The notes below the pieces were generated by a model. The model was not told the origin of the DNA. It searched no databases and saw nothing but the letters and a program-made list of their open reading frames with translations. A stretch of DNA of 64,000 nucleotides from Methanobacteriota archaeon. GTDB taxonomy: Archaea > Halobacteriota > Bog-38 > Methanoflorentales > Methanoflorentaceae. The position numbers were made by a program, and so were the translations under genes. Positions 24,810 to 28,199 of this stretch are shown piece by piece. The DNA lies in assembly GCA_963719035.1 (NCBI GenBank), contig CAVRAO010000008.1:64001-128000 (forward strand), read 5' to 3'. How positions within the stretch are numbered: position 1 is the first letter of the stretch; every line of letters begins with the position of its first letter.

Positions 24810-24947
24810 ATGAAGCGGTATTTCCACTGCACAGTCTGTGACGACATTCATTTTGGGGAAAATCCTCCTGAGATATGCCCTACCTGCGAAACTATGAGCT
24901 CCTACAAAGGGGTCACAAAAGACGAAGCTCAAGAATACCTCTTATAA
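24810..24947 (+). CDS. Rubredoxin-like small protein (45 aa)
   Basis: Manual translation MKRYFHCTVCDDIHFGENPPEICPTCETMSSYKGVTKDEAQEYLL; CxxC-x12-CPxC. Confidence 0.8.
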   Translation: MKRYFHCTVCDDIHFGENPPEICPTCETMSSYKGVTKDEAQEYLL

Positions 24948-25087
24948 AGAGTATCGCATTCGGAAATTGTTGCGAATCTTGCCGATTTTTCGTGCAGTCT
25001 TGAGACTACCGTAGATTTGACATAAACGCAAAAAATCGTAAAAAAAGAAACGAGCGCTGCAGATAATGACTTCTGCAGCACACTAAA

Positions 25088-26761
25088 TTAAATTTGATCC
25101 ATCATTGAATCGGACATGCCGGCCATTTCCTCTTCGGATGGCCCCTTCGAAAACGTAGCGGCTTGAATCACGTCATCAATTCGAAGGATCATGTTCGCAG
25201 CTTCAGTAGCTGATAAGATAGCCTGCTTCTTAGTTCTCAGAGGCTCTATCACGTCAGGCCACATGTCAGTGGCTTTTCCGGTTGAAATCTGAAGCCCCAT
25301 CGTTTTATTTCCCGATTCGTGGGCAGTCCTCAAGCCAACGAGCGAGTCCATCGGATCCAAACCCGAGTTTTCAGCAAGCGTTTTTGGGATTATCTCGATC
25401 GCGTCGGCGAATGCGATGACCGCGAGCTGCTCCCTCCCGCTGAGCGTTGAAGCATATTCTCGCAGTTGCATGGCAATCTCTATTTCAGGAGCGCTTCCAC
25501 CTGCGACGACCTTGCCGTCTTCGATCGCAGCTTGAACGACTCGAACCGCATCATACACAGCTCTGTGCGTCTCTTCGACGATATGATCGGCGCCTCCGTG
25601 AACGACAATACTGACGACCCGCGGGTTCTTACAGTCTTTTATTGTTATCATTGTTGGGACCTCTCTCTAATCAATGCCACAGGTATCACAGCTTGATTCA
25701 ATATCAGTAGTTTCTTCTATCTCGCCTGCTCGGCCTAAGTCAGATCTGCTCAGATCGTCTAAGCTGGATACGACCCGGGCGCCGGTCACCTTAGAGATCG
25801 TCTCAATATCTTCTCCTTTGACGTTTTCCACTGCCATCACATTCTTCCGCGAAAAATGCCATTGGATAAGGTCGTCGATACCCTTCTGGCAAAAGACGAC
25901 GTTTGCACCGCTTGCCAGAATCTTGTCAGCTTTTTCGATCAGCGTTTCGTGATCACGTTCCATAAAGAGCTTCATTTGAGTAGGGTCTTTTATTTTGATT
26001 TTGGCATCAGTTTTGGTTTTGGCTAGCTCCAGTGGCTGATCATAGACGAGAATCCGCGCATCACATACTTTTCGTGGCATTCCCTCAGCAGCGCGTTCTT
26101 TATCGATAACGACGCCTTCGACGAGTTCCGAATCAGAGACAGAACCAGATACTTTCTTTTCAATTCTGATGTCTTCCTCATCGACTTTGAACTTCTTATT
26201 ATCCTTTTGAGCGACTGCTTTGACCGCTCTAACCACGAACTCGGGAAGAACGTCTTTTCCAACATCAGTCCCCTTGCCCGTGAGCGCCGTCTGAGCAATC
26301 TTCTTCAACAGGTCGTCGTCGTTTATCGAAACGCGGCGAGACATCGATTCTGCGACCTCAATCGCCTTTTCTGCTGCGAGGCTGTAGCCTTTTTCGATGA
26401 CCGTTGGGTGGACGTCTTGCTCAAGTAGGTCCTCTGCGTACTTTAGTAATTCGCCTGCCAAGATTACGGCTGTTGTCGTGCCGTCCCCTACTTCATCATC
26501 CTGCGTCTTAGCGACCTCGACCATCATCTTTGCTGCAGGATGCTCGATGTCCATTTCCTTCAATATCGTAGCACCGTCGTTTGTTATGACTACTTCGCCC
26601 ATCCCATCAACGAGCATCTTGTCCATGCCTTTTGGTCCGAGCGTCGTTCGCACTGTTTCAGCAACGGCCCTGCTTGCGGTAAAATTCATAGACTGGGCTT
26701 CCCTGCCCTTCGTCCTTTGTGTTCCTTCACGGAGAATGAGAATCGGTTGACCACCAATCAC
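25088..26761 (-). CDS. ths: Thermosome (group II chaperonin) subunit interrupted by an in-frame TAG at 25667-25669
   Basis: [25 protein letters not shown] in the N-part; [28 protein letters not shown] in the C-part; the two ORFs share one frame and are separated by TAG plus 5 codons. Confidence 0.93.
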
Positions 26762-26996
26762 TATGCTAACCTCCGAAATAACTAGAGTTGTTGTTCTATA
26801 TAAAATTTCTTACAGCGGCTATAGTTGTTTGTCAAAAGACCCGACAAACGGCGTTCTTACAACTGGACAGGAGCAAGAGTTGATCAGCACAACATCGGTT
26901 GAATCTAAGGTCGCAGTCTCGTTGCGCTTGGGGCTCACATGCTCCGCAGGGCACGCTTCGCTCAAGCCCCTCAAGCATGCTTGAAGCGAACCCATA

Positions 26997-28199
26997 TCAC
27001 GGATTCATCGGTCGGTCACTTCGCACGAAAAAGCCGATTATCAGCACAGCGGCGACGGCCATGAACGCGCCGTAGAGAAAAGCAAACGTAGGGCCGATCG
27101 TTTGCCAGAGCGTGCCAGCAATCAGGCTTGCTGGCAAAGCGACAGCGCCGATGACGAAGTAATACGTACCGAATGCGGTGGCTTTGAGGTGCAGAGGGGC
27201 AAGATCGGACACGAGCGCTCTGGACACTCCGTCAGTAAGACCGTAATAAAGTCCGTAAAAGGGAAAAAGGACCCAGACAACGAGTGCAGATGAAGCGAAT
27301 GCAAATCCTAGATAGACTATGAAGAAGATCGCAAAGCCTATCAATAGCACCGCCTTGCGTCCTATTTTGTCGGAGACAATGCCAAACGGAAATGCAGAAA
27401 CCGCATATATAACATTCATCAAGAGATAGAGTAGCGGTATCACGAGCGTCGGGATGCCGAGGTTTTGCGCACGTAAAAAGAGGAAAGCGTCGCTTGAATT
27501 TCCAACAAAGAAAATACCGAGCCCCAAAAGAAAGGTGCGAAAGTTCGGGTCTAACGACCTAAAGGATACCTTGTATAACTGTTTGCTTCGTTGCCCGGCG
27601 GCCGTCTCTTTGACGAAAAAAACCACAAGTACCGTGGCAACTATGCCGGGAATGAATGCGAGGAGGAATAGTCCCCTATAGCTCAGGATGCCAAACAGAG
27701 CGACCGCGATAAGCGGGCCGATAACAGCCCCTAACGTATCGAGAGAGCGTTGAAAACCGAAGGACCTGCCCACCCCGAGACTCTTTGACTCAGATATGAT
27801 TGCATCACGCGCTGAGCTTCGTATGCCCTTGCCAAAGCGATCAAAGAACCGAATCGCCAAGACTTGTTGCCATGCGGTTGTGAATGCCAACAGGGGCTTC
27901 GCGATCGCAGCAATCGCATAACCAGAATACACCAAGGACTTGCGTTTCCCAAACCTGTCGGAGAGATACCCTGAAACGATCTTCAGTATGCTTGCTGCGC
28001 TTTCAGCAACTCCCTCAATAAGGCCCACATCAATGAACGTTGCGCCGAGCGCGTTAACGAGAAAAAGAGGAATGAGTGGGTAAATCATCTCCGTGCTCAT
28101 GTCGGCAAACAGACTCACAATCCCAAGGACTAAGACGTTCATACTTACGCCGAAAACAAGACCGTCCTTGGAGAATCGCTTCCCCCACATTCGCTCCAA
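26997..28199 (-). CDS. MFS transporter
   Basis: 12-TM pattern, GYLSDRFGKRK, DRFGKGIR, SDKIGRK. Confidence 0.9.
   Translation of the reverse strand: MERMWGKRFSKDGLVFGVSMNVLVLGIVSLFADMSTEMIYPLIPLFLVNALGATFIDVGLIEGVAESAASILKIVSGYLSDRFGKRKSLVYSGYAIAAIAKPLLAFTTAWQQVLAIRFFDRFGKGIRSSARDAIISESKSLGVGRSFGFQRSLDTLGAVIGPLIAVALFGILSYRGLFLLAFIPGIVATVLVVFFVKETAAGQRSKQLYKVSFRSLDPNFRTFLLGLGIFFVGNSSDAFLFLRAQNLGIPTLVIPLLYLLMNVIYAVSAFPFGIVSDKIGRKAVLLIGFAIFFIVYLGFAFASSALVVWVLFPFYGLYYGLTDGVSRALVSDLAPLHLKATAFGTYYFVIGAVALPASLIAGTLWQTIGPTFAFLYGAFMAVAAVLIIGFFVRSDRPMNP

Follow-up and report, generated by a model that had tools for sequence, protein, structure and literature searches.

The locus raises a simple question: does a stop codon inside an otherwise intact thermosome gene mark a damaged gene, a recoded gene, or the boundary between two genes that together encode one chaperonin subunit? 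The stop codon lies in a 64,000-nt stretch of DNA from a methanogen-type archaeon (the window), where two minus-strand open reading frames (ORFs) of 364 and 187 codons are separated by TAG and 15 nt and jointly span a whole thermosome subunit. The same genome also carries two ordinary thermosome paralogues, and the split gene is the third. Very probably, the locus records a true, ancient gene fission of this third thermosome (group II chaperonin) paralogue, leaving a bicistronic unit whose two chains would reassemble into one specialized subunit.

Gene layout and family membership

All features of the split gene are on the minus strand. A TATA-like box, TTTTATATA (26797..26805), lies upstream of the N-piece start and, judged by its letters, is a candidate archaeal promoter element. 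The Shine-Dalgarno (SD) motif GGAGGT (26769..26774) is found 7 nt ahead of the N-piece GTG start and is complementary to the 3' end of the genome's 16S rRNA, ...GGATCACCTCCT. GGAGG is present upstream of 6.3% of crudely chosen starts versus 0.7% of intra-ORF control positions. The N-piece ORF (25667..26761) has 364 codons plus TAG and encodes the N-terminal segment of the equatorial domain, the first segment of the intermediate domain, and almost the entire apical domain with its lid region. Its TAG stop codon (25667..25669) is followed by a 15-nt intercistronic spacer (25652..25666) that contains an SD-like GAGAGGT at 25665-25659, 7 nt before the ATG at 25651. The C-piece ORF (25088..25651) has 187 codons plus TAA and encodes the final strand of the apical domain, the second segment of the intermediate domain, and the C-terminal segment of the equatorial domain. 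Just past its stop, a short inverted repeat, CTGCAG...CTGCAG, is followed by T-runs (25030..25085), a putative terminator-like element. This reading of the minus strand bears out several points of an initial annotation made from the sequence: both ORFs are in one frame with a single UAG between them, the SD-like motif has the position described, and motifs such as ILRIDD are kept with no other stop or frameshift.

Family membership was assessed with the NCBIfam profiles NF041082, NF041083, and TIGR02339 and with Pfam PF00118. The N piece scores above the curated cut-offs of NF041083 (495.8 bits versus 400) and NF041082 (494.6 versus 450). The C piece alone reaches 229.5 bits (NF041083) and 218.7 bits (NF041082), under the whole-protein cut-offs, as expected for one-third of a protein. 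Together the pieces cover NF041083 positions 1-348 and 354-518 of 519. PF00118 is the sole Pfam match in each, at 368.3 bits for the N piece and 190.3 bits for the C piece versus a cut-off of 34.3.

The canonical thermosomes Mm-cpn of Methanococcus maripaludis (3KFB) and that of Thermoplasma acidophilum (1A6D) share the end-to-end profile match, GDGTTT, ILRIDD, and the lid region. The C piece matches residues 353-534 of PDB chain 3KFB_A (E 9.4e-55), with its Met1 aligned to residue 353. The canonical proteins differ in being one chain, whereas here a stop, an SD, and an ATG separate two ORFs at the final hairpin of the apical domain, and the new C-terminus bears 8 extra residues that include a CxxC. 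In place of a single polypeptide of ~520-560 residues, two ORFs are found in 21/21 orthologues with a visible junction. On sequence grounds, the subunit is thermosome-like and is encoded in two pieces.

The nucleotide-binding motifs of thermosomes are GDGTTT, the GGG-A-x-E loop, and the Asp of ...AVxDA.... GDGTTT (N-piece residues 92-97) and D34 of the C piece are invariant in 19/19 complete orthologues, and most other motifs are invariant too. In the nucleotide-binding loop, GGG is replaced by GGS at residue 53 of the C piece, where 98% of 98 other thermosomes have G. The lid, a helical protrusion, has no deletion relative to 12 intact thermosomes (alignment columns ~240-290), and conserved lid residues are swapped, E to K at N250 and EE to DH at N270-271. 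Other invariant substitutions are RR to EN (N312-313), H to W (N301), and a new Cys at N233. The split subunit possesses no GGM-type C-terminal tail. Because of the GGS and the replaced conserved apical and lid residues, the subunit may work unlike a standard thermosome.

Conservation and selection at the junction

The break is at the same point in 21/24 genomes of the class and occurs in both genera; the three genomes without a visible junction are 59-64% complete. The initial annotation had favored a naturally two-piece subunit, and this is strongly supported: all across the class, and under purifying selection, the break is kept together with the cysteine-bearing tail, the SD-like motif, and the ATG. 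The TAG itself is not conserved, the N-piece stop being TAG in 14, TAA in 5, and TGA in 2 of the 21 orthologues. The C ORF is in the frame of the N ORF in 13 of them, at +2 in seven, and at +1 in one, and is thus out of frame in 8/21. The spacer is 12-18 nt long in 21/21 and always contains a GGAG/GAGG core and the ATG; its length is not tied to multiples of three, and its sequence is variable except in the SD core. At the other end of the N piece, the start codon of the 19 complete orthologues has a constant position; 17 of them use GTG and two use TTG. The N and C pieces are always adjacent and tightly spaced and co-vary in presence.

Selection was estimated as dN/dS by the Nei-Gojobori method on the 19 complete orthologues (171 pairs). 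The values are 0.068 for the N core, 0.028 for the C core, and 0.060 for codons 346-364. For the tail (residues 352-364), dN/dS is 0.061 and 0.085 inside the two genera, respectively, and the tail codons carry many synonymous changes. Values this low indicate strong purifying selection on the two halves and on the extra tail.

A DNA contig from another public run (X14) matches the window exactly over 25628-25814, which shows that the TAG is no base-call error peculiar to this assembly. Two RNA libraries of a single study supply contigs (1617 nt and 914 nt) that run across the junction gap-free, at ~94% identity to the window, and have no splice-like joints. The RNA evidence consists of assembled contigs in which DNA carry-over is possible, and a contig over two genes is not proof of a single transcript. 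Two observations had been named in advance as counting against a two-piece subunit, a sense codon at the site and relaxed selection on the C-terminal half. The former is seen neither in the X14 contig nor in the 21 orthologues, and the C core, with the value given above, shows no relaxation.

The halves are adjacent and on one strand, each has its own start signals, and both are under purifying selection, which is the pattern of gene fission. The split clade is monophyletic (SH-aLRT 100), and its sister, L022, is unsplit and without the insertion. As read from the aligned genomes, the stop codon is a true gene boundary kept by a whole class-level lineage and is not damage or recoding.

Two chains and the competing explanations

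Under gene fission, the locus would be one transcription unit with two cistrons, in the order SD and GTG, N piece (~40 kDa), stop, a 12-18 nt spacer with a second SD, ATG, and C piece (~20 kDa). Ribosomes would terminate at the stop and re-start at the nearby SD and ATG, giving two separate chains. Low-level read-through is possible in 13/21 orthologues because the ORFs are in frame there. The break falls at the tip of the last apical beta-hairpin, between residues equivalent to 352 and 353 of Mm-cpn and a few residues ahead of the return to the intermediate domain; the initial annotation had likewise put the stop in a late apical beta-hairpin. After such a break, the apical domain would stay attached through a single covalent strand. 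N- and C-terminal segments both contribute to the equatorial domain and to the intermediate domain, so the two chains would interlock into one thermosome-like subunit. We infer this stoichiometry together with ring assembly, in which the split subunit would enter rings with, or beside, the two intact paralogues.

A structural model of the N + C complex gave an ipSAE of 0.86 in three runs, versus 0.00 for the best of three controls; the mark applied to this score is reached by 58/80 solved complexes and 2/110 mismatched pairs. The runs share at least 94% of contacts, the partner pLDDT is at least 83, and more than 500 contacts are confident. This pass may just reflect likeness to, or memory of, solved single-chain thermosomes.

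It is improbable, though it fits part of the evidence, that two chains are made and no thermosome subunit is rebuilt, with the N piece acting, e.g., as a holdase, an apical mini-chaperone, or a regulator of other thermosomes and the C piece having another role. Such a change of function is favored by eight family-specific invariant substitutions in N301-N325, three more in the lid region (N250, N270, N271), the GGG to GGS change in the C piece, and the long stem of the split clade, at 0.48 changes per column. The stem of the intact paralogue B is equally long (0.53), however, and the ATP-site motifs are retained in both pieces. The C piece, which would be foldless without the N-terminal equatorial segment, is the more conserved half. 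The constant adjacency, close spacing, and co-varying presence of the pieces also argue against separate roles, as does their joining in the complex model, with the same caution about memory of solved structures.

Rejoining of the ORFs into one chain by a programmed frameshift, ribosomal bypass, mRNA intron excision, or protein trans-splicing is very unlikely. An archaeal precedent exists in Sulfolobus solfataricus fucA1, which is reported (PMC1616953) to be likewise seen as two consecutive ORFs and to yield one protein by programmed -1 frameshifting. There a fixed offset and a recoding site lead to one chain, whereas the thermosome offsets of 0, +1, and +2 with SD and ATG fit re-initiation; no single shift fits all orthologues, and there is no fixed frame or recoding site. 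The break does adjoin cysteines, as intein junctions do, but Pfam detects no intein or Hint domain, the tail amounts to 8-14 extra residues, and the C piece opens directly with thermosome sequence. The tail is selected at the protein level and hence is translated, which argues against an intron, and the RNA-library contigs are unspliced. The junction region is also without a stable RNA fold (z = +0.49; 136/200 shuffles fold at least as well). An mRNA hairpin, AAUCAA/UUGAUU at 25669-25698, had been proposed here; its arms are complementary, but the pairing is absent from the minimum-energy fold, and the arms lose complementarity in orthologues, e.g., L005 and L006.

Still harder to sustain is recoding, in which UAG would be read through via pyrrolysine or a suppressor tRNA to give one full-length chain. 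In the window and 12 other orthologues, the ORFs do share a frame and the spacer is without a second stop. Set against this, an in-frame UAG is not conserved: TAA or TGA takes its place in 7/21 orthologues, and the frames differ in 8/21. The spacer is free to vary in sequence and length, and TAG terminates 208/785 long ORFs of the genome. A search for pyl genes in this 91% complete genome found none of PylS (TIGR02367; best 18.6 bits versus a cut-off of 178.15), PylB (TIGR03910; 43.6 versus 348.2), or, by ARAGORN, tRNA-Pyl among 34 tRNAs. The amber read-through entertained by the initial annotation is rejected on this evidence.

Decay or artefact, i.e., the sequencing error or recent nonsense mutation once allowed for, or a pseudogene, has almost no probability left: one in-frame stop resembles a point error, and the long-read assemblies of relatives have frameshifts in other thermosome genes (L098, L137), but the identical break in 21 genomes of two genera, the dN/dS of 0.03-0.07 on both halves, the independent X14 contig identical across the junction, and hundreds of database members that start or end at the same point all stand against it.

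The cysteine tail and relation to known systems

Aligned with 15 intact thermosomes, the N piece has 8 extra residues before its stop; counted with the stop and five spacer codons, these match the ~13 extra residues described in the initial annotation. The tail (residues 352-364; 25670..25708, minus strand) is lineage-specific and has the consensus ...E-[SA]-[SG]-C-x-T-C-G-I-D, with C358 and C361 forming the CxxC. C358, T360, C361, G362, I363, and D364 are invariant in 19/19 complete orthologues. In orthologue L020 the tail is garbled by an insertion of 1 nt, and in orthologue L021 it ends in ...CDTCAI. Because of these two cases, the exact tail may be dispensable, or L020 may be an assembly error. 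A search of the public protein database with residues 315-364 returned no fused or unsplit form carrying the tail; the 13 clusters found are 286-475 aa long, none is full-length, and the four inspected all end in ...CGID.

A possible role of the tail is to cap the newly made chain end or to clamp it in place, perhaps via metal or disulfide chemistry. In the N + C complex model, residues 352-364 lie outside the confident interface, and a zinc ion was carried along outside the scoring. An AlphaFold2 model of the N piece alone, from a 19-row alignment, is uninformative on the tail (mean pLDDT 37.1, pTM 0.21). A bolder and doubtful proposal is that the split is used and not merely tolerated. The invariant, lineage-specific C233, C358, and C361 would together create, where the hairpin is cut, a metal site or a reversible disulfide, and redox state or metal would then control how the apical domain is held and, through it, the closing of the lid or the subunit's entry into rings. 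C233 adjoins a strand in contact with the C piece. If the proposal is true, an mcrA-bearing anaerobe from peat and wetlands would possess a redox-gated chaperonin subunit. The tail, conserved and Cys-bearing, is a specific candidate for a new chaperonin regulatory element.

In chaperonins, nucleotide-driven movements travel from the equatorial to the apical domain along a continuous chain across two hinges. The class studied here keeps a subunit cut before re-entry to the intermediate domain, at a site taken to correspond to GroEL residue 376, and would be a natural test of how much covalent continuity domain communication requires. Until now, the same question has been approached with engineered circularly permuted GroEL whose ends are in the apical domain (CP376; Mizobata et al. 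2011, PMC3196576). That paper reports that these permutants assemble and keep ATPase and chaperone activity and that the apical domains of CP376 move uncoordinatedly. CP376 is similar in that its chain is interrupted within the apical domain or where this domain ends, close to the intermediate-domain link. It differs in being a group I chaperonin with a man-made break, joined old termini, and still one chain, whereas the split thermosome has a natural, class-wide break, two predicted chains, and an added Cys tail. A natural parallel is the split family-B DNA polymerase of Methanobacterium thermoautotrophicum and group B magroviruses, which is reported (PMC5434244) to consist of two ORFs cut inside a domain, stable within the lineage, and read as cooperating polypeptides. 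The lineage-stable intradomain cut is shared with the thermosome; the protein family is another.

A literature search found no published report of a split thermosome or split chaperonin. A two-ORF split of this kind occurs in 0/169 other thermosome loci, which are whole in 87/89 and 77/80 cases, the remainder being contig or locus ends or one frameshift. When related loci were sought with the N piece, the matches were all distant thermosomes (53-60% identity) and included no close kin. The protein database gave 14 clusters of C pieces of 187-197 aa, as well as many thermosome C-terminal proteins of 181-194 aa from other lineages, 15/17 of which, among those inspected, begin with Met at or up to 6 residues upstream of the split point. 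These were considered as independent splits and rejected. For the Methanoperedens type (P0029), the frame stays open in 77/80 genomic loci for 323 codons or more upstream and runs unbroken with the N part, and 3/80 are cut by the locus edge; since the loci are continuous, the short public "thermosome" entries that start at this conserved Met are truncated gene calls only. The two ORFs of the genuine split are themselves likely to be tagged by annotation pipelines as a pseudogene or as "partial" proteins. Two further candidates, L098 (a Methanoregulaceae record) and L137 (paralogue A of genome G022), are plain frameshifts without the stop-SD-ATG arrangement and are probably assembly errors or pseudogenes.

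Two adjacent reading frames and their start signals

The split thermosome gene lies on the minus strand as two open reading frames (ORFs). The N-piece ORF (26761-25667, 364 codons) has a GTG start and a TAG stop, and the C-piece ORF (25651-25088, 187 codons) begins 15 nt after that stop. Both share one reading frame in the window, as the initial annotation had read them, and the junction text agrees with its reading. Each piece has Cpn60_TCP1 as its sole Pfam domain. They cover positions 1-348 and 354-518, respectively, of the 519-position NCBIfam thermosome profile, and by sequence the two together make up a complete set of thermosome segments. The pair was described as free of other lesions, and no further stop or frameshift was found in it.

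The SD-like GAGAGGT reported 7 nt upstream of the C-piece ATG is present on direct reading. GGAGGT precedes the N-piece GTG at the same 7-nt spacing. The 16S rRNA of the source genome has the 3' end ...GGATCACCTCCT, and GGAGG is found before 6.3% of crudely chosen starts genome-wide vs 0.7% inside ORFs. An mRNA hairpin proposed at 25669-25698 did not hold up: it is missing from the minimum-energy fold, and the complementarity of its arms is lost in orthologues. The 81-nt junction region folds no better than its shuffles (z = +0.49; 136 of 200 as good).

Conservation of the break across the class

As sampled, the class comprises 24 genomes from two genera of a single family. Of these, 21 have a close split orthologue, and the remaining three genomes are 59-64% complete. 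All 21 have the same N-part end and the same C-part start Met, and 19 carry the tail consensus ...EET[TIA][DE][IV]E[SA][SG]C[DEAG]TCGID. The N piece of the split orthologue L021 terminates in ...CDTCAI. In L020, from a single-contig genome (G018), a 1-nt insertion turns the tail into ...GCGNMRN and shifts the stop to TGA; the insertion could be an artifact of assembly, or the second Cys could truly be lost.

The N-piece stop is TAG in 14 orthologues, TAA in five, and TGA in two. Relative to the N ORF, the C ORF is in frame 13 times, at +2 seven times, and at +1 once. The spacer is 12-18 nt, and a GGAG/GAGG core sits a few bases before the ATG in all 21. Any stop type and a shifting frame, together with a constant SD and ATG, indicate two cistrons and not a recoded one. 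The initial annotation had suggested aligning orthologues; the insertion, stop, SD, and ATG are kept in the class, the stop not always as TAG.

Selection was estimated by the Nei-Gojobori method on 19 complete orthologues (171 pairs), with medians excluding pairs that were saturated or had dS < 0.05. Median dN/dS is 0.068 for the N core, 0.028 for the C core, and 0.060 for codons 346-364. For tail codons 352-364, medians within each of the two genera are 0.061 and 0.085. These values argue that both halves are free of decay and that the extra tail is a selected peptide in its own right. Relaxed selection on the C-terminal half, named in advance as evidence against a functional split, was not seen.

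Each of the two ORFs thus has a start signal of its own, the arrangement is conserved throughout the class, and both halves and the tail are under purifying selection. These features strongly support the naturally two-piece option of the initial annotation. On the sequence evidence, a thermosome paralogue has undergone a real, ancient gene fission and has gained a CxxC tail that is itself under selection.

Pyrrolysine insertion or amber read-through had been offered as another reading of the TAG. TAG is the stop of 208 of 785 long open frames in the source genome. A profile search of this genome gave no match above cut-off for PylS or PylB, and tRNA-Pyl was not among its 34 ARAGORN tRNAs. Recoding was rejected on the lack of above-cut-off pyl matches, the varying stops and frames, and the constant SD and ATG. 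RNA-library contigs of 1617 nt and 914 nt (two libraries, one study; ~94% identity to the window) cross the junction gap-free with no spliced joints seen; being contigs, they speak to presence and continuity only, with DNA carry-over possible. A base-call error or recent nonsense mutation is contradicted by the break in 21 genomes and by a DNA contig from another run that is identical over 25628-25814, and sequence error and decay were both rejected on class-wide conservation and low dN/dS in both halves. An intein was dismissed, with no intein domain in Pfam and a C piece that opens directly with thermosome sequence.

Relation to other thermosomes

In a tree of 105 thermosome rows, including seven of 19 split orthologues and omitting three short rows, the split orthologues form one branch (SH-aLRT 100) whose stem measures 0.48 changes per column. 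Intact paralogue B of the same family has a comparable stem, 0.53. The sister of the split clade (support 99) is L022, an unsplit locus from another family that lacks the insertion. Among the other loci (L022-L110, n = 89), 87 are whole; of the remaining two, one runs off its contig and the other, L098, carries a plain frameshift.

L098, from a named Methanoregulaceae record, is frameshifted ~10 codons upstream of the same hairpin, with no stop-SD-ATG arrangement, and is probably an assembly indel. L137 (G022:C1:2270000-2274400), an extra copy of intact paralogue A, is frameshifted after ...FCQKG; the copy is a pseudogene unless the frameshift is a long-read indel.

In the public protein set (P0017-P0104), many thermosome C-terminal proteins of 181-194 aa from unrelated archaea start at the conserved Met that marks the split point. 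One such entry was traced to genomes, where 77 of 80 loci are continuous and three are ended by the locus edge. These entries were rejected as independent splits because the genomic loci are whole; they are truncated calls, open to confusion with split genes. A word-based search for fused forms (query residues 315-364, lengths 200-637 aa) matched 13 clusters with lengths of 286-475 aa, none of them full-length. The 475-aa cluster member is an upstream over-extension that ends in ...CGID, like three others inspected. Hence, no fused tail-bearing form is on record within 200-637 aa. Searches of an open-access library gave no relevant account of split genes for thermosomes or group II chaperonins. 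PMC5434244, the one paper to use both "split" and "thermosome" often, applies "split" to a DNA polymerase and not to the thermosome.

Cut position, proposed subunit, and genomic setting

Met1 of the C piece aligns to residue 353 of 3KFB_A (Mm-cpn) and residue 360 of 1Q3R_A. In the alignment, the cut falls at the tip of the hairpin ...LVEERK-x-G-x-x-M-x-F-V-E-x-CKNP, where the N piece is 8 residues longer than intact thermosomes. We take this hairpin to be the last of the apical domain, ~15 residues before the chain re-enters the intermediate domain (Mm-cpn limits).

Family-specific substitutions were defined as invariant in the split clade at positions where at least 85% of 98 other thermosomes share a different residue. 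Of 23 such positions, eight are within N301-N325, among them 301 (H to W), 312-313 (RR to EN), and 317 (S to E). The lid region contributes further ones at N250 (E to K) and N270-271 (EE to DH), and the glycine loop has one at C53 of the C piece, where GGG becomes GGS. C233 of the N piece is an invariant Cys, and this position lacks Cys in the 12 intact thermosomes compared.

The N and C pieces were modeled as a complex with a zinc ion. The model reached an ipSAE of 0.86 in three runs (best of three controls, 0.00), but this pass may be fold memory, since the fold is known from solved single-chain thermosomes; it shows likeness to the thermosome fold, not binding. In the reference sets, 58 of 80 solved complexes attain the ipSAE mark, as do 2 of 110 mismatched pairs. 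The runs share at least 94% of their contacts, and partner pLDDT is at least 83. The modeled C piece contacts N-piece residues 235, 237, 311, 321-327, and 343-351, the same apical patch as the family-specific substitutions. The tail is outside the confident interface.

One transcript would run between a candidate TATA-like box (26797-26805, upstream of the N piece) and T-runs past the C-piece end (after 25088). Ribosomes would terminate at the N-piece stop and re-initiate, led by the SD, at the C piece. The resulting chains of ~40 and ~20 kDa would interlock into one subunit, because the equatorial and intermediate domains each need segments of both, and this subunit would enter rings. GroEL CP376 is reported to keep ATPase and chaperone activity but to lose apical-domain coordination (PMC3196576). 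By this analogy, the apical domain and lid of the split subunit are likely more loosely coupled to the ATP site. The interest of the gene lies mainly in chaperonin allostery, for which it is a natural experiment, and in what its Cys tail may do.

Directly upstream of the pair is a 400-codon membrane protein ORF (26997-28199, minus strand), putatively MFS-like by eye. At 16 of the 17 named loci, which span both genera, a relative is found next to the split pair. Convergent to the pair is a 45-codon ORF (24810-24947, plus strand) with two CxxC pairs and a rubrerythrin rubredoxin-like domain (PF21349, 34.5 bits vs a cut-off of 26.5). Nine of the 17 named loci have it beside the pair, and all nine belong to the closer genus; it was not found in the five second-genus loci or in three short-flank loci.

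The source assembly totals 2.19 Mb over 13 contigs and is rated 91% complete. It encodes two more thermosome paralogues, both intact (57% and 53% identity). The mcrA gene at G000:C2:299538-301181 (minus strand) scores 990 bits against a family cut-off of 767.75, and the organism is therefore of a methanogen or methane-metabolizing type. Named relatives sharing the tail are uncultured archaea with MAG titles of Halobacteriota, Methanomicrobia, or Methanobacteriota, several from bog, fen, and peat projects. Three ARAGORN "tRNA-???" calls in G000:C2 (114385-114482, 121370-121453, and 374764-374849), with 4-base or 2-base anticodon loops, may be intron-bearing tRNAs.
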